Assembly (NCBI GenBank): GCA_934481375.1
Contig: CAKSPN010000001.1
Location: forward strand, 1-47,561
DNA from: an uncultured Clostridia bacterium
GTDB lineage: Bacteria > Bacillota > Clostridia > UBA1381
Length of the DNA: 47,561 bases
Direction of reading: 5' to 3'
The notes under the pieces: generated by a model
Told to the model about the DNA's origin: nothing
Seen by the model: only the letters and a program-made list of their open reading frames with translations
Databases searched by the model: none
Position numbers and translations under genes: made by a program
Shown here: piece by piece, positions 150-46,966 of the stretch
Numbering within the stretch: the stretch's first letter is position 1
Layout of the letters: each line of letters begins with the position of its first letter

Positions 150-1682
150 TTATTCAAAAAATTTTCGGTCTAAACTCCTGTACTGTATCGCCTCGGCGAT
201 GTGCGAAACGGTGATATTTTCCGACTCCTCAAGGTCGGCGATTGTGCGTGCAACCTTGAGTATTCTGCCATGCGCACGTGCGCTCAATCCGAGACTGTTA
301 AATGCGTTTTTTAAAAGCTCGTTTTCCGCTTTGCCTATTTTGCAGAATTCGTCGAGCATACCTGCGGTAAGCTGAGAATTGGAATAAATATTAAGCCCCT
401 TATACCGTTCAATCTGAATTTTGCGTGTTTTATTAACACGCTTTTTTATTTCTGCGCTTGTTTCGCCCTTTTTTCCCGAACTTAAGTCGCTGTAATTCAC
501 GCCCGTCACCTCAACCTGAATATCAATTCTGTCGAGGAGCGGTCCCGAAATTTTACTTCTGTATCGGCTTATCTGCGACGGCGTGCAGGTGCATTTGCGG
601 CGGCTGTCGCCGAGGTAGCCGCACTTACAGGGATTCATACTCGCCATAAGCATAATATTGCAGGGGTATGTAAGCATAGCGTTTACGCGCGAGATAGTCA
701 CTTTGCCGTCCTCAAGCGGCTGGCGCAGAACCTCAAGCACGTTTCTGTTAAATTCGGGCAGTTCGTCAAGGAAAAGTATGCCGTTGTGCGCAAGCGACAA
801 CTCGCCGGGTCGGGGTATTGTACCGCCGCCGGTAAGACCTGCCGCCGAGATTGTATGGTGCGGACTGCGGAACGGACGTTCCGAAACAATCGGCTGTTCG
901 GGCGACAGAACGCCTGCGATCGAATGAATTTTTGTAACCTCCATAGACTCGTCAAACGACAAATCGGGTAGTATTCCGCTCATACGCTGTGCGAGCATGG
1001 TTTTTCCCGTGCCGGGACTGCCTATCAAAAGTACGTTGTGATTTCCTGCGGCGGCAACTTCAAGCGCACGCTTGATGTTTTCCTGCCCCTTTACATCGCA
1101 GAAATCGAGAGCGGACAGACTCCGCTGTGAAAAATATTCTTCAAGGTCGACGGTGTGCGGCGCAAGGGGCGTTTCGCCCGAGAAATGCTTGCATATATCC
1201 TGCAGATTTTTTGCCGGATATACGCTTATCCCCTCCACCACCGCCGCCTCGTTTGCGTTTTCAAAAGGAACAAACACCTTTTTAAACCCTTGCTCGTATG
1301 CCGAGATAACTCTCGGCAAAACGCCGGGGACGGCGTTTATAGAGCCGTCGAGCGACAGCTCGCCTATAAACATAGTCTTTTCGGGGTCGGAAATTTCTAT
1401 CTGTTCCGTGGCGGAGAGGACGGAAATCGTTATGGGAAGATCGTATCCCGAACCCTCCTTTCGCCTGTTTGCCGGTGCGAGGTTTACGGTCACACGCTTT
1501 GACGGAAACCGCAGTCCCGAATTTTTGACGGCGGCACGCACACGCTCTTTTGCCTCACGCACCGTTGCGTCGGGGAGTCCCACTATTTCAAAGGAAACAA
1601 GCCCGTTTGATATGTCTGTCTGCACGCAGACGGGAAACCCGTCAATACCTTTAAGACCGCAGGAATATATTTGTGACAACAT
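150..1682 (-). CDS. comM: YifB/ComM family Mg-chelatase-like AAA+ ATPase
   Basis: N-terminus MLSQIYSCGLKGIDG is typical of the family. Walker A GSPGTGKT and Walker B ILFLDE are present. The ORF-track start at 1697 is a TTG. I prefer ATG 1682, which has GGAG 9 nt upstream and lies 4 nt after the tcdA stop. Confidence 0.9.
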   Translation of the reverse strand: MLSQIYSCGLKGIDGFPVCVQTDISNGLVSFEIVGLPDATVREAKERVRAAVKNSGLRFPSKRVTVNLAPANRRKEGSGYDLPITISVLSATEQIEISDPEKTMFIGELSLDGSINAVPGVLPRVISAYEQGFKKVFVPFENANEAAVVEGISVYPAKNLQDICKHFSGETPLAPHTVDLEEYFSQRSLSALDFCDVKGQENIKRALEVAAAGNHNVLLIGSPGTGKTMLAQRMSGILPDLSFDESMEVTKIHSIAGVLSPEQPIVSERPFRSPHHTISAAGLTGGGTIPRPGELSLAHNGILFLDELPEFNRNVLEVLRQPLEDGKVTISRVNAMLTYPCNIMLMASMNPCKCGYLGDSRRKCTCTPSQISRYRSKISGPLLDRIDIQVEVTGVNYSDLSSGKKGETSAEIKKRVNKTRKIQIERYKGLNIYSNSQLTAGMLDEFCKIGKAENELLKNAFNSLGLSARAHGRILKVARTIADLEESENITVSHIAEAIQYRSLDRKFFE

Positions 1683-6392: not shown

Positions 6393-6455
6393 GTGCGGAC
6401 GGCGTTTGCATTTTGCTGAACCGCATTTCGGGTCGATGAGAGCATCGACCCCTAC
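6393..6455. repeat. Family-1 intergenic repeat (linker + module A)
   Basis: GGGTCGATGAGAGCATCGACCCCTAC (6430-6455), preceded by a GCATTTTGC...CCGCATTTC linker similar to those at 40531-40560 and 42946-42974 (reverse orientation). Confidence 0.8.
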
Positions 6456-33796: not shown

Positions 33797-35533
33797 TTGA
33801 AAAGATATTGGAAATATATACGCCCCTATCTGCCGTTTTTCATACTCGGTCCGCTTCTGATGCTCAGCGAGGTTGCCGGAGAAATAGTTCTTCCAAAGCT
33901 TATGTCGGGAATGATGGACTACGGCGTAATGGAGGATTTGGGAACGCCGTACATCATCGGACAGGCGCTTAAAATGCTTTTATGCATACTCATTATGATA
34001 TGCGGCGGCACGGGCGGACATTATTTCTCGGTAAAAGCGTCGGCACATTTCAGCGCCGATTTGCGTAAAGATGTATTTTCACGTGTGCAGGAGTTTTCTT
34101 TCGGAGATATAGACAAATTCTCAACAGGTTCTCTTGTCACAAGACTTACAAACGATATAACCCAGCTTCAGAACGTCCTGAGAATGGGACTTATAATGGC
34201 AATGCGTGCGCCGGGTATGCTCATAGGCGGAATAATTATGGCTTGCAGTATAAACGCAAAGCTTGCGCTTGTTCTTGTAATTGTAATACCGCTTTTGACG
34301 GCGGCAATAGTATTGCTGATGAAAACGGCGTTTCCGAGATTTCAGATTATGCAGAAAAAGCTCGACAGCTTAAACTCGGGAATACAGGAAAACATCACAA
34401 ACGTGCGTGTGGTAAAATCGTTCGTGCGTGAGGATTTTGAAATAAAAAAGTTTGATAAATCAAACAGCGATCTCACCGACTCAACCTTAAGAGCGCTGAG
34501 AATTATAGTTGCGACAATGCCTGTTATGATGCTTGCAATGAACATAACTACTTTGAGTGTTGTATGGATAGGCGGTAAATTTGTAATAGGCGGCTCGATG
34601 AAGGTCGGAAGCCTTACGGCGTTTACGACCTACATTGTGCAGATACTTATGTCGCTTATGATGGTTTCCATGGTAATTCTCCAAAGCTCGAGAGCAACCG
34701 CCTCCGCATCAAGAATAACGGAGGTGCTTGATACAAAGAGCAGTCTTACGGATGATAACGCAAAAATGAAAGACAAAAAGGTTGAAAACGGCACGGTTGA
34801 CTTTAAAAACGTAAGCTTTAAATATTATGCCGACCGTGATGACGAAATACTTGAAGGTATATCGTTCCATATAGGCGCAGGGCAGACGGTCGGAATAATA
34901 GGAACGACCGGCTCGGGAAAAACGAGTCTTGTTCAGCTTATTCCCCGTCTTTACGACGTTGATTGCGGAGAAGTGCTTGTTGACGGCGTAAACGTAAAGG
35001 ATTACAGCCTTAAACACTTGCGTGACGGCGTGGGAATGGTACTGCAGAAAAACGTGCTTTTCTCAGGCTCGATAGAGGAAAATCTCCGCTGGGGCGATGA
35101 AACCGCCTCCGATGAGGAGATAAGAAAAGCCGCAGAGGCGGCACAGGCGGACGGGTTTGTAACATCGTTCACCGACGGCTACAAAATGGAACTGGGACAA
35201 GGCGGCGTAAACGTGTCGGGCGGTCAGAAACAGAGATTGTGTATTGCCCGTGCGTTGCTCAAAAAGCCGAAAATCCTTATTCTTGACGACTCCACAAGCG
35301 CAGTGGACACCGCAACCGAGGCAAAAATCAGAGAGGCTCTCTCAACGGAGCTTAAAGACACAACAAAGATAGTAATCGCACAGAGAATTTCGTCGGTTGT
35401 AAACGCCGATAAAATTCTCGTGCTTGAAAACGGAAGGCTTGTCGGTGAGGGAACTCACGAAGAGCTTTTGAAATCGAACAGCGAATACCGTGACATTTAC
35501 TATTCGCAGACAGACAAGGAGGTGGACGCATAA
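33797..35533 (+). CDS. ABC exporter half-transporter (TMD-NBD), heterodimer subunit 1
   Basis: Six-TM exporter domain. Walker A GTTGSGKTS, signature VSGGQKQR, Walker B ILILDDSTS. TTG start with AAGAAGGTG RBS. Confidence 0.9.
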   Translation: MKRYWKYIRPYLPFFILGPLLMLSEVAGEIVLPKLMSGMMDYGVMEDLGTPYIIGQALKMLLCILIMICGGTGGHYFSVKASAHFSADLRKDVFSRVQEFSFGDIDKFSTGSLVTRLTNDITQLQNVLRMGLIMAMRAPGMLIGGIIMACSINAKLALVLVIVIPLLTAAIVLLMKTAFPRFQIMQKKLDSLNSGIQENITNVRVVKSFVREDFEIKKFDKSNSDLTDSTLRALRIIVATMPVMMLAMNITTLSVVWIGGKFVIGGSMKVGSLTAFTTYIVQILMSLMMVSMVILQSSRATASASRITEVLDTKSSLTDDNAKMKDKKVENGTVDFKNVSFKYYADRDDEILEGISFHIGAGQTVGIIGTTGSGKTSLVQLIPRLYDVDCGEVLVDGVNVKDYSLKHLRDGVGMVLQKNVLFSGSIEENLRWGDETASDEEIRKAAEAAQADGFVTSFTDGYKMELGQGGVNVSGGQKQRLCIARALLKKPKILILDDSTSAVDTATEAKIREALSTELKDTTKIVIAQRISSVVNADKILVLENGRLVGEGTHEELLKSNSEYRDIYYSQTDKEVDA

Positions 35534-37347
35534 TGCCTAAAATGGGACCTCCGAAAAATGCAAAAAGAGGCAAGCCGAAAAATATGAAAGCGGCTATAAA
35601 GCGCCTTTTCGCTTATCTCAACGAGGATAAGCTTAAAATAGGCATTGCGTTTTTGTGCGTGCTTATAAGCTCGGCGGCAAACCTTGCCGGAACGTATATG
35701 TTAAGACCTATTCTGAATAATCTCGTGGCGGACGTGAGCGCTGCCGAGAGAGTCGGCGCACTTGCACTCGGACTGGGGAAAATGGCGTTTATATACGCCT
35801 GCGGCGTGGCGGCGACGTATTTACAGTCACGCCTTATGATAGCCGTATCGCAAAAAGCGATTAAAAAAGTCAGAGCAGACCTGTTCTGCAAACTGCAAAA
35901 GCTTCCCGTGCGATATTTTGACACAAACGCAACGGGCGACATAATGAGCCGATTTACAAACGATGTCGATACCATAGGCGAAATGCTCAATTCCACGCTT
36001 ATGCAGATATTCTCGGGACTTATAAGCCTTGTCGGCACGCTTGTGCTGATGTTCTACACAAACTTTATACTTTCGTGCGTAACAATCGTTATTGCTCCGC
36101 TTATGGCGCTTGCAGGCGGTGCGATTGCCTCACGTTCGAGAAAATATTTCTCGAAACAGCAGGCGGCGCTCGGTGCGGTGAACGGATATATCGAAGAAAC
36201 CGTAACGGGTCAGAAAGTAGTAAAGGTATTTAACCACGAGGAAAAAATAGTCGAGGAATTTTCCGACCTTAACGATAATTTAAGAAATGCGCAGATAAAG
36301 GCGCAGTTCCTGGGCGGAGTTATGGGACCCGTAATGAACGCAATGAGCCAGGTCAACTACACGCTCACCGCAACGGTCGGCTCGATAATTGCATTCATCA
36401 CAAGAGCGGGAAAATCCATTCCGCTCGCATCGCTCGATATAGGCGGACTGGGAGTGTTCGTAAACTTTTCACGCCAGTTCTCACGCCCGATAAATGAGCT
36501 TGCAAATCAGCTTACAACCGTTATGTCCGCACTCGCCGGAGCGGAGCGTGTGTTTGACGTAATGGATAAAGAACCCGAAAAGGAAACGGGCAAAAACCTT
36601 GTTCCCGAAAAGATTAAAGGCGACGTCATAATAGACGATATAACGTTCAGCTACAACCCCGGCAAAGTCATATTAAAGGACGTTTCGATATATGCGCACC
36701 CGGGACAGAAAATTGCGCTTGTAGGCTCAACAGGTGCCGGAAAAACCACGATAACAAATCTTATCACACGTTTTTATAATCTTGACAAAGGTAAAATTAC
36801 GGTAGACGGTATCGATATAAACGATATTAACCGAGAGTTTCTGCGCAAAAATATAGCCGTTGTATTGCAGGATACGCACCTGTTCACGGGTACGGTAATG
36901 GAAAATATCCGCTACGGCAGACCCGACGCAACCGATGAGGAAGTAATGGCGGCGGCGAAAACCTCAAACGCACATTCATTCATAAAGCACTTGCCAAAAG
37001 GCTATGACACTGTATTGAGCGGCGACGGCTCAAACCTTTCGCAGGGACAGCGCCAGCTTTTGAATATCGCCCGTGCGGCGCTGTCAAAAGCGCCCATACT
37101 GATACTTGACGAGGCAACAAGTTCGGTCGATACCAGAACGGAACGGCACATAAACGAGGGTATGGACGCGCTTATGGAGGACAGAACGACTTTCGTAATA
37201 GCGCACAGACTCTCAACCATACGAAATGCGGACGCAATTATGGTGCTTGAACACGGCGAAATAATAGAGCGCGGCGCACACGAGGAACTGCTTGAGAAAA
37301 AGGGCAGATATTACGAGCTTTACACGGGACTTAAGGAATTAGACTGA
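35533..37347 (+). CDS. ABC exporter half-transporter (TMD-NBD), heterodimer subunit 2
   Basis: TAATG overlap with subunit 1. Walker A GSTGAGKTT, signature LSQGQRQL, Walker B ILILDEATS. Confidence 0.9.
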   Translation: MPKMGPPKNAKRGKPKNMKAAIKRLFAYLNEDKLKIGIAFLCVLISSAANLAGTYMLRPILNNLVADVSAAERVGALALGLGKMAFIYACGVAATYLQSRLMIAVSQKAIKKVRADLFCKLQKLPVRYFDTNATGDIMSRFTNDVDTIGEMLNSTLMQIFSGLISLVGTLVLMFYTNFILSCVTIVIAPLMALAGGAIASRSRKYFSKQQAALGAVNGYIEETVTGQKVVKVFNHEEKIVEEFSDLNDNLRNAQIKAQFLGGVMGPVMNAMSQVNYTLTATVGSIIAFITRAGKSIPLASLDIGGLGVFVNFSRQFSRPINELANQLTTVMSALAGAERVFDVMDKEPEKETGKNLVPEKIKGDVIIDDITFSYNPGKVILKDVSIYAHPGQKIALVGSTGAGKTTITNLITRFYNLDKGKITVDGIDINDINREFLRKNIAVVLQDTHLFTGTVMENIRYGRPDATDEEVMAAAKTSNAHSFIKHLPKGYDTVLSGDGSNLSQGQRQLLNIARAALSKAPILILDEATSSVDTRTERHINEGMDALMEDRTTFVIAHRLSTIRNADAIMVLEHGEIIERGAHEELLEKKGRYYELYTGLKELD

Positions 37348-37368: not shown

Positions 37369-39513
37369 ATGAAAACATACCAGCTTATATATACTTCGGT
37401 ACAGCACAGCCTGTCCGACAGTTCGCTCGGTTTGTCAAATCAGTCGGGGCTTAGGGTCTACTCCTGTTCCCAGGGCGTGACGGAGGAAAACATACGGGAA
37501 ATAATAAAGTTTTCAAGCTACCGTCTGCCCAAGAACAACGAGATAACGTTTTCGGAAATAATCGGCGACCCGAAAATCCCCGATATGTTCCCGAAAGCGT
37601 TTCGGACACTGAGATTGTCCGACGGACGGTTTGCGGCAATACAAACGGTGTTTTCGGGAGTGGATTTTCAGGGCGAGCCGGATAATTTCTTTGCTCATGC
37701 ACTGATTTTTGACGATATTGACGACGGATTTTTCCCCGAACAATATATAAACAACAGCGTATTCAAAAAGTATCTGACCGCACAGGAGGCGGAATGTGAG
37801 CTTGTACATTATCTGCCGCCGCTTGACGTAACGCCCGATGAGGAAACCAAAAAGCATATTGAGGAGTTTATCTCCTCACACAAAAAAGAGCTTTCGTACC
37901 TTATCGAAAAGGCGCTTTCGGTGCTTGTTTCGGATAAAACCGAGAGCATATGCATAGCAAGTGCGGACGCCGATAAAACCGCCGATTACCTTATATCGCT
38001 CAAATGGCTTTTGCCCCGTGATATATCGGTAAATGTGGGAATTTCAACATATAATGTGTATCTCCCGTCGGGAAAACAGCCGCAGATAGTGTTCTACGGC
38101 ACAATCAAGGGAAAGAACAATATAACAAAACAGGCGGTCGAAACACGTGAGAACTGTATCTATACAGATATGGACAAAAAGGATTTTTCACAAACGGAGA
38201 TTTCTCCCGTGTTTGAATTTACCGTTGAGGATTTGCGCAAAGAGTATACGGAGTACAAATTCAGCTCCGTAACGCAGTTTACGGACTGGCTCGAAACTCT
38301 CAAAAACGTTTCCGCTCCGGGAATGGGAGCAAAGTTGTTGCGGCTTAAGGCATCGGCAGGCGATAAAGCGTTTGCAAAGCGTGTTTCGGAACTGTACGCT
38401 CATATAAATGATGAAAATATGAAGCTTGTCAGATTTGAAATATTAAAGGCGGCGTTCGACAGCATTTCATTGTTCCCCGATATTGAGGACGAGGTTTCGG
38501 AGGAATATGTCGGACAATGCGTTGATAAGCTGTGCGGAGGCGGAAATTATGATGTCTACGACCTCTTTGCAAACGGCGGCGGCAACATAGGCGGTGCGCA
38601 CAGACTTAAGGCGCACATCGGAGAATACATTGAAAAAATAAAACCCCGGCTTGAGGAGATGGGCGAAAAGAACAAGCGCATACTGCTTAATCTTTTTGCG
38701 GACATAAAGCACCGCACCGAAACGGAAACCTGGAAAGAGCTGTTCGGAGCGGACAGAGAAAAGCTCGGCGTGTTTGTTGAGCTTGCGTCGGTCATTATAA
38801 CAGGCTACGGCTTGGGAGCGTTCACCGCACCGTCCGAATGGACAGCGGAGGACATTGCCGAAACGGCGGCATACTTTGAGGCGTCCGCCGAGGACGAAAA
38901 AATAAAAGACAGCTGTATAAAATATATCTGCGAGCATGAGGACATAAACTGGGAAAAATACGGCATCACGATTACAGAGCGTGTGAAAACCAAAGACGAG
39001 CAGGAAACCGACATACGAAAAATACGGCGTATGCTCGCAAAGGTGGGATACATTCCGTACAAGCGCAATACCTACGATGCATTAAAAAGCGATGTACGGC
39101 GTGATATGAACCAAAACAGGTCGCCGCTCATGCTTTCCAAATTGCTTGACGCATACTATAGCTGGAAAACGGACGGAGAAAATCAGGCACAGGCGCAGAA
39201 AGATGCGCAAAAGATTGCAAAACTGCTTTTGGAAATGCGGCGCAGGGAAAAAACGTGCTATGATTTTATAATCCCCAAGCTGGCGCTTGAAATAGTTGAA
39301 ACGGACAGTCATTATCACGAGTTGATAATAAACGCCGAAACAATGCCCGAAAGCTTTTGGAACTGGTTTATAATCGGGTATAAGCGAAACGAGGGCAACG
39401 ACATTACAGCGCTTAATTACATTCGCATATATGAGGCAAGCAAAAGAAGATTTCTGCGTATGACGGCAGGAAAACCCTTAAGAGAAACGTTTTCAAAAAC
39501 AGAAGGAGTATAA
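37369..39513 (+). CDS. Large soluble protein of unknown function (714 aa) with a GAP1-N-like N-terminal motif set
   Basis: Long ORF with no competing frame, starting 21 nt after the ABC gene. N-terminus YQLIYTS...GLRVYSCSQGV...DNFFAHALIFDD. No TM segment and no P-loop seen. Confidence 0.75.
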   Translation: MKTYQLIYTSVQHSLSDSSLGLSNQSGLRVYSCSQGVTEENIREIIKFSSYRLPKNNEITFSEIIGDPKIPDMFPKAFRTLRLSDGRFAAIQTVFSGVDFQGEPDNFFAHALIFDDIDDGFFPEQYINNSVFKKYLTAQEAECELVHYLPPLDVTPDEETKKHIEEFISSHKKELSYLIEKALSVLVSDKTESICIASADADKTADYLISLKWLLPRDISVNVGISTYNVYLPSGKQPQIVFYGTIKGKNNITKQAVETRENCIYTDMDKKDFSQTEISPVFEFTVEDLRKEYTEYKFSSVTQFTDWLETLKNVSAPGMGAKLLRLKASAGDKAFAKRVSELYAHINDENMKLVRFEILKAAFDSISLFPDIEDEVSEEYVGQCVDKLCGGGNYDVYDLFANGGGNIGGAHRLKAHIGEYIEKIKPRLEEMGEKNKRILLNLFADIKHRTETETWKELFGADREKLGVFVELASVIITGYGLGAFTAPSEWTAEDIAETAAYFEASAEDEKIKDSCIKYICEHEDINWEKYGITITERVKTKDEQETDIRKIRRMLAKVGYIPYKRNTYDALKSDVRRDMNQNRSPLMLSKLLDAYYSWKTDGENQAQAQKDAQKIAKLLLEMRRREKTCYDFIIPKLALEIVETDSHYHELIINAETMPESFWNWFIIGYKRNEGNDITALNYIRIYEASKRRFLRMTAGKPLRETFSKTEGV

Positions 39514-39515
39514 AG

Positions 39516-40319
39516 ATGAACAGATTGTATAAAAAGATTTTTGCTTTCATTGTAACAACGATGGTAGTCGTTTCGGGAACAGCCGTACTTGCGGCATCGC
39601 CCGAGCCTACCACACGCCCCCGTCCCGAAAGTACGCAGACGGTACAGGCGGAAAATTCAGGCTCCGAGAGCGGCACGGGCGGAGCCGACAGCTCCAACGT
39701 TTCGATAACGGTAGAAACACCGTCACCGCAGAACGCCGCCTCAAACAAGCATTACACCACCAGAGGCGGTGCGTTCGGCTGGTTTTTGCTGTCGGTGCTG
39801 GTAAATGCGGTTTTAAGCTTTGCAATCGGAAACAGATTTTATAAGATGTCGAAGAAAAACAATCACGTAAACGCAGAAGTGCGTGCATTAAGACGTGACA
39901 TAGAGGAAAAGTTTAATGCAAACGTGGGCGGATTTTCGGAGCATGACGTTGAGGTTTCAAACTCAAACGAAAGCTATGCGCTTAACGAGGGCGGCATAAA
40001 GGCGAATGTTAAAAAATCTGAGGAGGAGCTTTCCGCCGAGGAAACGTTCAGACAGTGGGAAACAAACCTTGCAAAGCAGGAGGCTGAAAGACGTGAAGCG
40101 CTCCGTGAGGCGTTAAAGCCGAGAACGACAAGAGAGTTCGTTGAAAAAGAGGACTCGGCGGTAAGCGCAGGCAGACGTGAAAAATCGTACAAGCCCGAGC
40201 GTGAGCATACCGCAGAGGAAAGCATAGAGGAGGAGCAAGAGGAAGAAAGCACCTTCGGCGCAATAAAGAATAAGGCAAAGGAAATAATAACGGATATATT
40301 CCCGTTTCGGGAGGATTAA
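39516..40319 (+). CDS. Bitopic membrane protein: signal peptide, Pro/Ser/Thr linker, one TM helix, long charged tail
   Basis: GAAGGAG RBS lies inside the 3' end of the upstream gene, and the ATG is 2 nt after its stop. MNRLYKKIFAFIVTTMVVVSGTAVLAA, then the TM helix FGWFLLSVLVNAVLSFAIG, then about 165 aa of Glu/Lys/Arg-rich tail. Confidence 0.75.
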   Translation: MNRLYKKIFAFIVTTMVVVSGTAVLAASPEPTTRPRPESTQTVQAENSGSESGTGGADSSNVSITVETPSPQNAASNKHYTTRGGAFGWFLLSVLVNAVLSFAIGNRFYKMSKKNNHVNAEVRALRRDIEEKFNANVGGFSEHDVEVSNSNESYALNEGGIKANVKKSEEELSAEETFRQWETNLAKQEAERREALREALKPRTTREFVEKEDSAVSAGRREKSYKPEREHTAEESIEEEQEEESTFGAIKNKAKEIITDIFPFRED

Positions 40320-40326
40320 ACCAAAA

Positions 40327-40360
40327 CAACGGCTAAGTTTTAACTTAGCCGTTGTTTTTT
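40327..40360 (+). terminator. Rho-independent terminator
   Basis: CAACGGCTAAGT-ttta-ACTTAGCCGTTG (perfect 12-bp stem) followed by TTTTTT. Confidence 0.88.
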
Positions 40361-40383
40361 GTTCAAATATATCCGCAAAATCC

Positions 40384-40586
40384 GGTAGGAGACGATGCCT
40401 TTCATCGTCCCGAGCGGAAATTGCATTTTTGCGGGTTGGACATCAACCCCCACAGATACGTTTTCAATAACTGCAAGCCACATCGCCAAAAAACAACGCT
40501 CACGCCGTAGGGCAGGGGCTTGCTCCTGCCGAGAATGCACACCGCACAGGACAGCGTTTCGGGTTGATGAGGGCATCAACCCTTAC
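40384..40586. repeat. Family-1 repeat cluster (A variant ... B + A)
   Basis: GTAGGAGACGATGCCTTTCATCGTCCC (40384-40410), CCGTAGGGCAGGGGCTTGCTCCTGCCGAGAATGCACACCGCACAGG (40505-40550), GGGTTGATGAGGGCATCAACCCTTAC (40561-40586). Confidence 0.8.
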
Positions 40587-40638: not shown

Positions 40639-41913
40639 TCAAAACAGGATTTCCTGTATTTTTTTCACATCAACGTCACGCACTTCAACGTTATCCTTAA
40701 CCGCAACGGCTGCCGCAGCACCTGCACCGCAGCCTATCGCAAGGCATATCGGCATTGCACGGAAATTGGAGTGTGCCATATGCGTGCCGGAAATATTTCT
40801 GCCCGAAAGGAGCAGTCCGTCGATTCTTTCGGGTACAAGACAGCCGTAAGGAATTGTATACCCGTTCTTTTGCGTAAACTTGTGCTGAACGCCCGTCTTA
40901 TCAAGTCCCGAACCGCTGATATTATGAACGTCAAAATTAAAATATGCGTCCTCAACAACACGATCATCAAATATGCGTGCCTCGGAAATATCCTCCTCGG
41001 TTATCGTCTTTACGCCCTTGAAATGGCGTGTTTCACGTATGCCGATTAGCGACGCCGAGCTTATAGCAAAACAATTTTCATACCCGGGTGCAAACTCACG
41101 CAAGAATTTCACTATCGGCTCAATCTGCGCTCTGCACTGCAATTCGGCTTTTGTTAGCGCTTCTGCGTCCGTTCCGTCAATATCGATGCAGTTTGTCATA
41201 TTGCAGGTGATTATTCCGGGGAGCGTTGTCGGATATAAAAGAACATGACCTGTCGGCGCTTTAAGATGCTCCCGTGCCAGCGCTTGCAATTCGCCCTTTT
41301 CCGTTTGGTATGTGTCCTCAAAACTCCACAGCGTTACCGCATTTTCCGTATCAACTCCGCCCACCTTAAACATAAGCGTTGCCGGCTGCATTTTTCCGTC
41401 CGTTTCTCTGCCCTTAAAATATTCTGCGCCCGCTTTTGCGGCAATATCTCCGTCACCGCTTGCGTCTATTACAACCTTTGCTTTTATAAGTCCCGTTCCC
41501 GACTTGTTCTCAACTATTACGCCGCACACCTTGTTGTTCTCGGTAACAACTCCGCTTGCGAAAGTATATAATAAAATCCGCACGTTTGCCTCGGTGAGCA
41601 TTTCGGCATACAGTGCTTTCAGATTTTCCGGGTCGATTAAGTCGGTAATTTCATCGGAAAAAATATTTTTTTCGGCACTTTTTTGCAGGATTTCACTGTA
41701 AAGCTTGCTTTTTACGCTACCCGTCCAGTGGCTCATAAGTCCCGAGGTTGAAATTCCGCCCAATGCTCCGCACTGCTCGATTATCATAACGCTTACGTTA
41801 TTTCTTGCCGCCGCAACAGCCGCACCTATTCCGCCCGGACCTGCTCCCACAACGAGTACGTCCGTTTCGGCGATTACGGGGATTTTTTCTTCTTTGCGTG
41901 TATAGTATTCCAT
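40639..41913 (-). CDS. FAD-dependent oxidoreductase (GlcNAc/glycan-locus-type FAD_oxidored family)
   Basis: Dinucleotide fold DVLVVGAGPGGIGAAVAAAR. A second Gly-rich segment lies near the C-terminus. 424 aa. Confidence 0.8.
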   Translation of the reverse strand: MEYYTRKEEKIPVIAETDVLVVGAGPGGIGAAVAAARNNVSVMIIEQCGALGGISTSGLMSHWTGSVKSKLYSEILQKSAEKNIFSDEITDLIDPENLKALYAEMLTEANVRILLYTFASGVVTENNKVCGVIVENKSGTGLIKAKVVIDASGDGDIAAKAGAEYFKGRETDGKMQPATLMFKVGGVDTENAVTLWSFEDTYQTEKGELQALAREHLKAPTGHVLLYPTTLPGIITCNMTNCIDIDGTDAEALTKAELQCRAQIEPIVKFLREFAPGYENCFAISSASLIGIRETRHFKGVKTITEEDISEARIFDDRVVEDAYFNFDVHNISGSGLDKTGVQHKFTQKNGYTIPYGCLVPERIDGLLLSGRNISGTHMAHSNFRAMPICLAIGCGAGAAAAVAVKDNVEVRDVDVKKIQEILF

Positions 41914-42032: not shown

Positions 42033-42908
42033 ATGACGGAAAAAATAAAGAAATATCTTGATTTTTTAAACAACGAATATAAATTATCGGTTACAATCCA
42101 CGAAGCTGACGGCGCACTCGGCGGAATGGGAAGTCTTGCGCCGTACAATGTACACGGAAATCCGTACTGCCTTTACATAAAATCCTGCTGTGAAAACTGG
42201 AATAATTGCATACAACGTCAAAAGAAAGTGTTTGAAAAGTGTGCGGACGGCGCTTTTTTCGGGTCTTGCTGTTACGGAGTCGGGGAATTTGTCATTCCTG
42301 TGGAGCATAACGGGCGTATTTTGGGATTTGTGAGCGTGAGCGGTTATAAGGGCGATGAGAAGAAGCGTGATCACTCGGCGGAAAAATACGGACTGTCAAA
42401 AGAGGAAACAAGAAGAATTTACGAAAAAAGCCTGTCGGACGATATTCCCGATGCAGATTTTATAAAAACGCTTATAAATCCGCTGTGCGCAATGCTTATT
42501 CTGCGGACTATGGAAAAGCACGCCGAACCCGATAACGGCGGTGATTACATTTACGGGCATATCGTTTCGATACTGAACACCGAGTACAACAAAAAACTGA
42601 CAATCGGGGACATTGCCGCCAACTGCCATTGCAGCGAGTCGCACATAAGCCATTTGTTTAAGCTAAAATCGGGAATGACGATAAACCAATACCTTACGGA
42701 TATAAGGATAAAAAAAGCAAAAGCATTGCTTGCCGATACGGATATGAGTATATTCGATACGGCGTATTCGTGCGGTTTTTCGGACGCAAATTATTTTATT
42801 TCCGTGTTCAGAAAGAAGGTCGGTCTGCCGCCCGAAAGATACAGAAAAAGAGCGGTACGCAGCCGAAAACAAATACCGGTAGAGGTCGATGCCCCGTGCA
42901 GTGTGTGA
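42033..42908 (+). CDS. AraC family regulator with PocR-like N-terminal sensor domain
   Basis: Cys-rich N-terminal domain (NPYCLYIKSCCENWNNC...GSCCYGVGEFVIPVEHNGRILGFVSVSGY) resembles PocR. C-terminal double HTH. The last ~10 codons run into a family-1 repeat. Confidence 0.8.
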   Translation: MTEKIKKYLDFLNNEYKLSVTIHEADGALGGMGSLAPYNVHGNPYCLYIKSCCENWNNCIQRQKKVFEKCADGAFFGSCCYGVGEFVIPVEHNGRILGFVSVSGYKGDEKKRDHSAEKYGLSKEETRRIYEKSLSDDIPDADFIKTLINPLCAMLILRTMEKHAEPDNGGDYIYGHIVSILNTEYNKKLTIGDIAANCHCSESHISHLFKLKSGMTINQYLTDIRIKKAKALLADTDMSIFDTAYSCGFSDANYFISVFRKKVGLPPERYRKRAVRSRKQIPVEVDAPCSV

Positions 42909-43044
42909 TTTACGTAATTAGTAGGGTCTATGCCCACATCGACCCAAAATGAAATCCTGTGCGGTGTGCATTTTCGGCAGGAGCAAGCCCCTGCCCTACG
43001 GCATACGGTTTACATAATCTGTAGGGTCTATGCCCACATCGACC
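42878..43044. repeat. Family-1 repeat cluster (degenerate A, A, B, A)
   Basis: GGTAGAGGTCGATGCCCC (42878-42895, inside the CDS), GTAGGGTCTATGCCCACATCGACCC (42921-42945), CGGCAGGAGCAAGCCCCTGCCCTACGG (42975-43001), and a second A copy (43021-43044). The 37-nt blocks at 42908 and 43008 are direct repeats exactly 100 bp apart. Confidence 0.85.
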
Positions 43045-46875: not shown

Positions 46876-46966
46876 GGGTCGATGTGGGCATCGACCCCTA
46901 CGGATTTATGGAAAACGCACGCCGTGCAGGGCAACGTTTAGGGTCGATGTAGGCATCGACCCCTAC
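46876..46966. repeat. Family-1 repeat cluster (A, degenerate B, A)
   Basis: GGGTCGATGTGGGCATCGACCCCTAC (46876-46901) and GGGTCGATGTAGGCATCGACCCCTAC (46941-46966) are direct copies 65 bp apart. Confidence 0.85.

Follow-up and report, generated by a model that had tools for sequence, protein, structure and literature searches.

GAP1 proteins of the GAP1-N2 subtype, with their N-terminal (GAP1-N2, PF20013) and middle (GAP1-M, PF20014) domains, were described as part of DO-GTPase-centric systems (Kaur, Burroughs, Iyer and Aravind, eLife 2020; PMC7159879), and the family was assigned to predicted conflict systems. In these systems, the GAP1 gene is typically found directly downstream of the gene for the DO-GTPase or is fused to it, the two are said to co-evolve, and the N and M domains have been proposed as the contact to the GTPase (PMC7159879). 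GAP1 proteins have so far been known from comparative genomics only, and always as obligate partners of DO-GTPases in predicted conflict systems; a search of the literature yielded no study in which a GAP1 function was tested, and a PDB sequence search yielded no solved GAP1 structure. Another described arrangement with bearing on our data is that of type VI secretion in Acinetobacter, where TagF is under the control of TagZ, a single-pass protein; the membrane partner on which TagF of A. baylyi depends combines a short cytosolic motif that is conserved with an extracytoplasmic part that is variable and unstructured (bioRxiv 10.64898/2025.12.08.692957).

We analyzed a stretch of 47,561 nucleotides from an uncultured Clostridia bacterium of the UBA1381 lineage (referred to as the window throughout) that encodes a GAP1-like protein. 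The features considered are the following.

33797..37347, plus strand: two ABC half-transporter genes (578 and 604 aa), both with ABC_membrane and ABC_tran domains (Pfam)
37369..39513, plus strand: GAP1-like gene for a 714-aa cytoplasmic protein; ATG start, stop codon at 39511-39513 (ORF list, Pfam GAP1-N2 match, homologues, dN/dS, AlphaFold2 model)
37369..37803, plus strand: GAP1-N2 domain, residues 1-145 (PF20013 match, secondary structure)
37804..38193, plus strand: GAP1-M-equivalent alpha/beta middle domain, residues 146-275 (hhalign to the canonical GAP1-M region)
38194..38793, plus strand: first helical region, residues 276-475 (hhalign reaches residue 474)
38794..39510, plus strand: second helical region, residues 476-714, clade-specific (outside the hhalign match)
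39516..40319, plus strand: gene for the 267-aa partner (alignment, hydropathy, downstream conservation)
40323..40363, plus strand: intrinsic terminator, a perfect 16-bp hairpin followed by a U-tract, which closes the transcription unit

A sequence-only reading of this DNA had judged the 714-aa ORF at 37369..39513 to be a genuine gene, and its deep conservation, far above chance, and a dN/dS of 0.06 relative to a 98%-identical orthologue (L001) bear this out. The GAP1-like gene is under purifying selection, and these data rule out that it is a pseudogene or relic. Its ATG is preceded by an AG-rich stretch resembling a ribosome-binding site, and all GAP1-like homologues begin with a common MK(V/T)YQ sequence. 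The same reading had labeled the protein an orphan, which proved wrong: it has 231 matching clusters at 90% identity with lengths that are all about 710-720 aa, one of which alone comprises 4,732 member sequences, and 98 relatives are encoded in species-representative genomes. The named sources of these homologues are exclusively gut Clostridia, either uncultured or isolates (Ornithomonoglobus, Hominilimicola, UBA1381). Among 71 species-level GAP1-like sequences, conservation is at least 97% at 105 of the 714 positions.

PF20013 matches residues 5-143 of the protein (E 9.2e-15, 55.3 bits; Pfam cut-off 24) and is likewise matched by all 24 aligned members of the GAP1-like family. Alignment with 39 canonical GAP1 proteins by hhalign extends over residues 1-474 with a probability of 99.96% (E 4e-39). 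The GAP1-N-like head motif was correctly recognized in the sequence-only reading; its elements YQLIYTS, RVYSCSQG, and NFFAHAL lie within the top-conserved region of the family. In the AlphaFold2 model (mean pLDDT 87), the GAP1-N2 domain adopts an alpha+beta fold with an antiparallel sheet core, and this is the best conserved part of the protein, with 33 positions conserved to at least 97%. At the level of sequence, the GAP1-like protein is a real, diverged GAP1 relative of the GAP1-N2 type.

The middle domain (residues 146-275), which carries an invariant GISTYNVYxPS motif, is modeled as an alternation of strands and helices. PF20014 gave weak matches in 7 of the 24 family members (best E 5e-4) and no match at E <= 1 in the window's own 714-aa protein; hhalign aligns canonical, PF20014-bearing GAP1 proteins straight through this domain. 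As judged from these alignments, a GAP1-M middle domain follows the N domain in the GAP1-like protein. The earlier description of the remaining ~600 residues as helical is accurate for residues ~276-714, which are all-helical in the model, and inaccurate for the alpha/beta region of residues ~146-275. The first helical region (residues 276-475), which includes a low-confidence loop at residues 401-405 of the model, shows the lowest conservation, with a mean column entropy of 1.83 that is the highest of the four parts.

The hhalign match ends at residue 474 of 714, and the final 240 residues match this clade only. A profile search of all proteins with residues 476-714 returned just short fragments of the same family, and the fold matches found by Foldseek for this region were generic alpha-solenoids only. 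It nevertheless contains 38 positions with at least 97% conservation and the motifs VGYxP (residues 559-563), HYH (648-650), and FWxWF (663-667); the invariant HYH/E cluster (residues 648-651) may represent an unrecognised metal or catalytic site, which would speak against a non-enzymatic protein. A Pfam model for GAP1-C was matched neither by the 714-aa protein nor by the canonical proteins scanned, and the canonical C domain is therefore poorly defined in the present data.

In line with what had been read from the sequence, a regular-expression search detected no P-loop in the 714-aa protein, there is no convincing transmembrane segment, and above threshold the protein matched no family of known catalytic function. 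The top 19-residue hydropathy window (1.66, residues 466-484) corresponds to a helix within a confidently modeled helical domain. Nothing usable was found in NCBIfam, PADLOC, and PDB sequence searches with the single protein and with the profiles A1 and A3; the PDB matches of profile A3 were designed helical repeats, and we rejected them as composition-driven. We also discarded a Pfam match to HamA (E 0.006, 16.9 bits, below the cut-off of 25) that was seen in 1 of the 24 members, and took matches to CSN8/PCI and STELLO in two to three members as noise. A Foldseek comparison of the full-length model with viral structures gave nothing meaningful.

The gene downstream of the GAP1-like gene starts 2 nt past its stop codon, with a GGAG ribosome-binding site located inside the 3' end of the upstream gene, and encodes a 267-aa membrane protein without a P-loop. 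This gene follows the GAP1-like gene in about 70 of 74 loci, separated from it by ~11 nt in the median; it is hence a constant partner, as the two-gene-module idea of the sequence-only reading had anticipated. The partner possesses an N-terminal signal peptide (residues 1-27, VLA|AS site), a variable Ser/Thr/Pro-rich stalk, one conserved transmembrane helix (residues ~84-106), and a cytosolic tail with a conserved juxtamembrane motif (AEIRALRRDIEEKF) and a C-terminal KNKAKExLxDIFPF motif. Its ectodomain is hypervariable in both length and composition among the homologues, whose total lengths range from 137 to 352 aa. The 267-aa protein matches no family above cut-off in Pfam, NCBIfam, or PADLOC, and 59 of the 60 clusters of its homologues are devoid of a Pfam domain, while the remaining one carries a stray PF01168 assignment. 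We considered a degenerate form of the transmembrane-segment-bearing downstream DO-GTPases of canonical loci as its origin and dismissed this, as the partner HMM does not match those proteins. The RNA fold of the terminator behind the partner gene has a free energy of -22.7 kcal/mol (z-score of -8.0 relative to shuffled sequences). Scans of the window with Rfam and for tRNAs found nothing.

With slightly less than even chances in our estimation, the GAP1-like protein is a diverged and domesticated GAP1-N2-type protein that forms a membrane-tethered adaptor module with its 267-aa partner. It has retained an N-terminal alpha+beta domain, an alpha/beta middle domain, and part of the helical region from the canonical layout, while the neighboring DO-GTPase and FnIII genes have been lost and a clade-specific 240-residue helical C-terminus has been added. 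The 267-aa type-I membrane protein, presumably translationally coupled to it, is its constant partner: the cytosolic motifs of the latter (the juxtamembrane helix and the C-terminal DIFPF) may physically contact the soluble GAP1-like protein and recruit it to the membrane. Together, the two proteins might function close to the membrane as an adaptor or checkpoint module without enzymatic activity, analogous to TagF under the control of TagZ. Such a module, usually co-transcribed with a heterodimeric ABC exporter, would represent a vertically inherited core-genome function of one gut Clostridia lineage and not mobile defence.

The adaptor or checkpoint parallel with TagF-TagZ could be coincidental since the fold similarity to TagF and DENN proteins is weak. 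Foldseek found no match below 1e-3 for residues 1-284; the best PDB match is TagF 9t0n (E 2.6e-3, probability 0.91), and its superposition is poor (TM 0.31-0.35, rmsd 7.9 Å over 255 columns, 11% identity). FLCN-FNIP2, C9orf72-SMCR8, and the P. aeruginosa TagF were the next fold matches, with probabilities of at most 0.23 for the other TagF and DENN matches, and the full-length model retrieved generic alpha-solenoids from the PDB in addition to TagF and DENN proteins. None of the papers searched connects TagF and DENN; the string "longin" in the eLife 2020 GAP1 paper is part of the word "belonging".

The GAP1-like gene is syntenic and single-copy within each locus, and the same upstream block is present in most of the 78 species-level loci inspected. 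The block consists of the genes for an AsnC regulator and an aminotransferase, (pyrG), ABC1, ABC2, the GAP1-like gene, and the 267-aa gene, followed by the terminator; variable housekeeping genes (e.g., MgsA, GNAT, glycogen genes, MinD) are located downstream. The whole seven-gene block is tightly packed, and adjacency alone is weak functional evidence here. In ABC1, an Asp replaces the catalytic Glu of the Walker-B motif (LILDDSTS) and ABC2 retains this Glu (LILDEATS); the exporter is therefore heterodimeric, and one of its ATP sites is degenerate. The gap between ABC2 and the GAP1-like gene (21 nt in the window, median ~27 nt across loci) leaves no room for a terminator, and there is no plus-strand terminator-like site between the stop codons of ABC2 and the partner gene; from this layout, the ABC pair is probably co-transcribed with the GAP1-like gene.

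A functional link to this exporter would amount to a partner swap: held in place by the 267-aa protein, the GAP1-like protein would regulate the ABC exporter encoded upstream as an accessory factor, and the NTPase bound by the GAP1 N and M module would now be the nucleotide-binding-domain dimer of that exporter in place of the DO-GTPase dimer. The order ABC1-ABC2-GAP1-like-partner speaks for such a link, as it persists in most of the 78 loci, even where the identity of the GAP1-like proteins drops to 36-39%, and so do the short gap behind ABC2 and the cohesion of these four genes while pyrG varies upstream of them. The placement of canonical GAP1 genes directly after an NTPase gene points in the same direction, and longin-DENN-like folds are regulators of NTPases in eukaryotes (FLCN-FNIP, C9orf72-SMCR8). 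Nevertheless, we regard this explanation as rather unlikely. The ABC pair is dispensable as a neighbor because it is missing upstream in three loci, in two of which (L029 and L081) the GAP1-like/partner pair directly follows the aminotransferase gene, whereas unrelated genes are found upstream in the third (L054). Furthermore, the functionally unrelated pyrG and aminotransferase genes are packed equally tightly in the block, and the synteny may therefore reflect inertia within one lineage. The canonical Arg of the SGRxGN motif, a possible NTPase contact, is lost, and we know of no accessory protein of such a kind for any type-IV ABC exporter.

In all three canonical relatives that we looked up, GAP1 lies between DO-GTPase genes, with DO-GTPase2 and Fn3 genes flanking it and the boundary of the GTPase gene ~10 nt away from GAP1. 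Neither the six-frame ORFs of the window nor the 78 loci with flanks of +/-10 kb contain a DO-GTPase as assessed by phmmer (E <= 1) and an HMM built from six sequences; the sole match of the DO-GTPase search had an E of 0.0098 (in L008). FnIII proteins were likewise not detected by phmmer in the window or the 78 loci, in a search whose sensitivity is limited because the FnIII protein of L079 was the single query. The sequence-only reading had seen no gene for a GTPase, MoxR, vWA, or effector protein in the vicinity, and this stands as far as DO-GTPases, FnIII proteins, and those neighbors that were scanned with Pfam are concerned. Among the short GAP1-N2 proteins that we looked up in other lineages, no second GTPase-less GAP1 type came to light: P0187 (712 aa) is encoded between two DO-GTPase genes. 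Another such protein, P0252, lies on a 4-kb contig that is uninformative on its neighbors.

Since our inspection was confined to ~47 kb at the gene's own locus and to +/-10 kb per locus in the other genomes, a DO-GTPase gene may exist elsewhere in these genomes and would count against the adaptor view. The protein would then be a conventional GAP1 that regulates a distantly encoded DO-GTPase, perhaps together with FnIII proteins and effectors. The N and M domains, the proposed GTPase contacts (PMC7159879), are indeed the best conserved, yet we judge this proposal to be unlikely, as it is at odds with the direct downstream position or fusion typical of the co-evolving pair (PMC7159879) and with a GTPase gene ~10 nt from GAP1 in three of three canonical relatives versus none of the 78 loci here. 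The Arg of SGRxGN is present in at least 90% of the 39 canonical GAP1-N2 sequences but variable in the GAP1-like family, with Glu103 in the window's protein, according to a joint alignment with 24 family members; this feature was derived here and not by the authors of PMC7159879.

A more far-reaching version of the exporter link, which we hold to be improbable, is that a GAP1 module, perhaps of a TagF/longin-DENN-like fold, swapped the DO-GTPase dimer for an ABC nucleotide-binding-domain dimer and is held by a single-pass anchor with a stalk that extends into the cell wall. If true, an NTPase regulator would have been retargeted between unrelated classes of P-loop NTPases, and the protein would, to our knowledge, be the first cytoplasmic accessory regulator of such a fold for an ABC exporter.

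The NTPase-centered conflict system that the sequence-only reading had proposed does not agree with our data: no DO-GTPase or FnIII gene was detected in the window or within 10 kb in the 78 loci, the synteny with housekeeping genes is fixed, plasmid and phage collections lack the GAP1-like family, and neither protein matches any family of PADLOC-DB 2.0 at E <= 1. A mobile neighborhood with variable effectors was not seen, the same block being present in most of the 78 loci. The GAP1-like gene is not a defence island and sits in the stable core genome; the loss of the GTPase partner, this core-genome place, and the small membrane partner therefore suggest a repurposed variant. A self-contained two-gene defence system, in which the membrane protein detects invaders at the cell envelope, with the GAP1-like protein as effector or switch, would fit the origin of the latter in a family that has been assigned to conflict systems (PMC7159879), the hypervariable partner ectodomain, and the variability of residues 276-475, but is very improbable given the fixed chromosomal place without defence-island neighbors, the absent PADLOC, plasmid, and phage matches, the lack of a recognisable effector domain, a variable stalk that is a low-complexity Ser/Thr/Pro linker and not a diversifying folded domain, and the strong purifying selection.

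The GAP1-like family shows that the GAP1 scaffold is separable from its GTPase and that a decoupled GAP1 has become fixed in the conserved core gene set of a prevalent gut Clostridia lineage. It offers a simpler two-protein system for identifying the binding targets of the GAP1 N and M domains, and is a further example of how a component of conflict systems was domesticated for a role in the cell, one that is probably associated with the envelope. Should the ABC link be functional, it would constitute a new kind of transporter accessory factor.

With FLCN-FNIP2 and C9orf72-SMCR8, which rank near the top of the fold searches with either model (full-length or N-terminal), the GAP1-like protein shares an alpha+beta sheet domain and an alpha/beta domain. 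These proteins regulate small GTPases, in keeping with the genomic linkage between canonical GAP1 and DO-GTPases; however, homology is not demonstrated at a Foldseek probability of 0.16-0.21 for the N-terminal model and a TM below 0.25, and the locus is without a GTPase. TagF (PDB 9t0n, 6iz8, 2qnu) likewise consists of an alpha+beta N-domain followed by an alpha/beta second domain, and the combination of a soluble protein with a single-pass partner in TagF-TagZ is mirrored by the GAP1-like protein and its 267-aa partner. In contrast, there is no sequence-level signal between TagF and the GAP1-like protein, the helical extension of ~440 residues is missing from TagF, the membrane orientation of TagZ is reversed relative to the 267-aa partner, with its N-terminus in the cytosol, and the genomes studied here are of the Gram-positive type, with no T6SS genes seen.

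The closest comparison is that with canonical GAP1 proteins, with which the GAP1-like protein shares a homologous GAP1-N2 domain, the GAP1-M-equivalent domain, the first ~200 helical residues, and the motifs YQLxYTS and GNxFxHAL. The membrane-proximal setting and partners with transmembrane segments are also in keeping with GAP1-N2 systems as described. Unlike canonical GAP1, the GAP1-like protein is encoded without adjacent DO-GTPase, FnIII, HSP70, tubulin, vWA, and kinase genes, has lost the Arg of SGRxGN, and is ~130-190 residues shorter, with its last 240 residues being clade-specific. Instead, it has a new, dedicated type-I membrane partner, whose homologues belong to no Pfam family above cut-off, and resides in a stable core-genome block, whereas canonical GAP1 genes occupy mobile and variable neighborhoods.

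The gene designated GAP1-like, for GTPase-associated protein 1, starts 21 nt past the stop codon of an ABC half-transporter gene (ABC2) and is preceded by an AG-rich, ribosome-binding-like stretch.

37369-39513, + strand: GAP1-like gene, 714 residues, ATG start, sole long frame at this site in the ORF list

Relative to its 98%-identical orthologue in locus L001, we counted 70.5 synonymous and 17.5 non-synonymous differences; since this gives a dN/dS of 0.06, the gene is real and under purifying selection. Together with the at least 97% conservation of 105 of the 714 positions among 71 species-level sequences, this bears out the sequence-only reading that the frame is genuine. That reading had also described a protein devoid of a P-loop and of membrane-spanning segments; indeed, no Walker-A motif was found in the 714-aa sequence, and a TM segment is unlikely because the hydropathy peak (19-residue window 466-484, mean 1.66) coincides with a helix of the helical domain that is modelled with confidence.

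The motif pattern that had pointed to a GAP1-N-like head proved right, since Pfam GAP1-N2 (PF20013) matched residues 5-143 with an E-value of 9.2e-15 and 55.3 bits (cut-off 24). In an all-protein profile search, the next-best proteins after the GAP1-like family were 840-910 aa long and aligned over residues 1-230; nearly all those scanned contain GAP1-N2 and GAP1-M. Comparison of the family profile with a profile of 39 canonical GAP1 proteins gave a probability of 99.96% (E 4e-39) over query residues 1-474, and weak GAP1-M matches were present in 7 of 24 family members. GAP1-like is a true homologue of GAP1. Canonical GAP1-N2 domains retain the Arg of 'SGRxGN' in at least 90% of sequences; in the GAP1-like family this column of the joint alignment is variable, and the window protein carries Glu103. 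NCBIfam, PADLOC and PDB sequence searches were empty, and neither the all-protein profile search nor the profile-profile comparison detected a counterpart of the last 240 residues beyond the clade. This clade-specific C-terminal region contains an almost invariant HYH(E) cluster (residues 648-651, window 39300-39306) and an FWNWF motif (residues 663-667, window 39355-39369), which could form a metal-binding or partner-binding site; no family or fold match accounting for either was found.

An AlphaFold2 model built from the family alignment (mean pLDDT 87.1) and a separate model of residues 1-284 (pLDDT 89.3, pTM 0.89) delineate the following parts.

Residues 1-145: alpha+beta domain with an antiparallel sheet as base
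Residues 146-275: alpha/beta domain
Residues 276-714: all-helical

The claim that the ~600 residues following the head are helical is hence only partly right: it holds for residues 276-714 and fails for the modelled alpha/beta domain at 146-275. Foldseek searches of the PDB yielded no match below E 1e-3. The top match of the N-terminal model was Acinetobacter baylyi TagF (9t0n; E 2.6e-3, prob 0.91, 255 columns, TM 0.31-0.35), followed by weaker matches to FLCN-FNIP2, C9orf72-SMCR8 and P. aeruginosa TagF; with the full-length model, TagF, FLCN-FNIP2 and C9orf72-SMCR8 recurred amid generic alpha-solenoid matches. We regard this model-based likeness of the N-terminal part to TagF and longin-DENN proteins as a lead, not as established.

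GAP1-like is not the orphan it had been taken for. A word-indexed protein search found 231 clusters at 90% identity; all 120 of those listed comprise ~706-736 aa with PF20013 as their sole Pfam domain, except for one with an added PF20014, and their named sources are Oscillospiraceae, Clostridia, Hominilimicola or Ornithomonoglobus MAGs. A single one of the clusters comprises 4,732 member sequences. Relatives were encoded at 98 places in a scan of one genome per GTDB species (lowest identity 36%), from which 78 distinct loci were retained, and a HMMER profile search of 1.84 billion cluster representatives recovered only eight full-length clusters at 50% identity. On these results, the family is compact and confined to one lineage.

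GAP1-like lies in a closely packed block of seven genes, all on the + strand, of which the others are (ORF list, Pfam):

From 30400, + strand: AsnC-type regulator
From 30939, + strand: class I/II aminotransferase
From 32129, + strand: CTP synthase, pyrG
From 33797, + strand: ABC1 half-transporter
From 35533, + strand: ABC2 half-transporter
39516-40319, + strand: p267, the 267-aa partner

Between the ABC2 and p267 stops, a consensus scan gave no terminator-like site on the plus strand, and a hairpin with a perfect 16-bp stem and a U-tract (-22.7 kcal/mol, z -8.0) lies 3' of p267. In the translations, the Walker-B Glu is kept in ABC2 and replaced by Asp in ABC1. A replacement of this kind in one half usually marks a heterodimeric exporter in which one of the sites is degenerate, the type to which this pair would belong.

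The order ABC-ABC-GAP1-like-p267 is preserved in most of the 78 loci, with median gaps of ~27 nt (ABC2 to GAP1-like) and ~11 nt (GAP1-like to p267). pyrG occurs in part of the lineages and is missing from others, and the genes 3' of p267 are lineage-variable housekeeping genes (MgsA, GNAT, CapD-like enzyme, glycogen genes, class-V aminotransferase, MinD). In L029 (493-3839) and L081 (2-2526) the GAP1-like/p267 pair directly follows the aminotransferase gene without the ABC pair, which is also missing from L054 (1-3551), where unrelated opposite-strand genes lie upstream. Because of these exceptions, GAP1-like and p267 form the constant unit, as the proposed two-gene module anticipated, within a larger conserved block whose ABC pair is commonly adjacent to them yet dispensable. 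Set between the preserved order and the three exceptions, regulation of the upstream ABC exporter by the module appears unlikely; this natural variation is useful for testing such a functional link. In two lineages, small extra ORFs separate ABC2 from GAP1-like (L006:7242-8020 and L068:9145-9925); the second ABC gene of L068 looks split into a 462-aa part and an NBD fragment of 162 aa, suggesting that in this locus the transporter is decaying or has undergone a frameshift. About 3 kb 3' of the module in L086 (15454-21948; 2.4-Mb contig with P0054), integrase, Mob_Pre relaxase, transposase and primase-like genes represent an integrated mobile element that adjoins, and does not include, the conserved block.

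The window also contains repeats. A short palindromic intergenic element, GGGTCGATGCCCACATCGACCC, and its variants are present in at least five copies versus 0 expected by chance; it resembles a REP- or MITE-type repeat belonging to the source genome, and spurious ORFs arising from it share the peptide LCGVHxRQEQAPALR. Inverted 80-nt copies of this repeat (40504-40583 and 42923-43002; 88% complementary) flank a divergent gene pair, and the whole may constitute a small cassette of mobile or recombined origin; L071 has a related pair (66% and 41% identical) at another place on its contig.

6431-6451, ~40560-40583, 42924-42944, 43024-43044, 46877-46897, 46942-46962: palindromic element copies
40639-41913, - strand: FAD-dependent oxidoreductase
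42033-42908, + strand: AraC-type regulator

The three canonical GAP1 relatives whose contigs were inspected reside among GTPase genes. Their orders are Fn3, DO-GTPase2, GAP1, TM-bearing DO-GTPase (L079); HSP70, HSP70-vWA, Fn3, DO-GTPase2, GAP1, DO-GTPase2 (L083); and GrpE, HSP70, Fn3, DO-GTPase2, GAP1, ..., DO-GTPase2 (L085), in agreement with the published description (Kaur et al., 2020; PMC7159879). The downstream DO-GTPases (L079:12665-13762, L083:10551-12611, L085:10814-12214) have N-terminal TM helices; that of L079, with zinc-ribbon-like CxxC pairs ahead of its P-loop and no recorded Pfam match, belongs to the DO-GTPase family without being annotated as such. We used the GTPases and FnIII protein of these loci as phmmer queries, along with HMMs from six GTPases, and found no DO-GTPase or FnIII protein in six-frame ORFs of the window and the 78 loci bar one marginal match (L008, E 0.0098), in line with the earlier remark that no GTPase is nearby. 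Action on an unlinked GTPase is somewhat less probable still than regulation of the exporter, and some other target at the envelope is a further candidate. Since the defining contextual features of GAP1/DO-GTPase conflict systems fail, the conflict-system reading is not supported, and we file GAP1-like as a GAP1 variant rather than a member of those systems. No copies were found on plasmids or phages, and a stand-alone defence function of the pair is highly improbable.

p267 starts 2 nt past the GAP1-like stop, with its GGAG ribosome-binding site inside the GAP1-like gene. An alignment of 71 orthologues (137-352 aa) revealed, from the N-terminus onwards, a signal peptide (AxA-type cleavage site), a Ser/Thr/Pro stalk of low complexity and highly variable length, a single conserved TM helix (GGxFxWFLLSVxVNxxxSFxIGNRFY), a juxtamembrane motif that is likewise conserved (AEIRALRRDIEEKF), a variable stretch rich in acidic residues and a conserved C-terminal motif, KNKAKExLxDIFPF. 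Only one of its 60 homologue clusters (177-369 aa) has a Pfam domain, a stray PF01168. The p267 HMM gave no match to the DO-GTPases.

The most economical mechanism would be a membrane-tethered, non-enzymatic adaptor pair, in which p267, as a type-I membrane protein, presents its conserved short cytosolic motifs and thereby recruits GAP1-like; we tentatively favour this adaptor model. This clean, prevalent and GTPase-less lineage could render the biochemistry of the uncharacterised GAP1 family tractable. A precedent of like logic is provided by TagF, also the best fold match: in A. baylyi, it requires TagZ, a single-pass protein whose short cytosolic motif is conserved and whose outer part is variable and unstructured (bioRxiv 10.64898/2025.12.08.692957).
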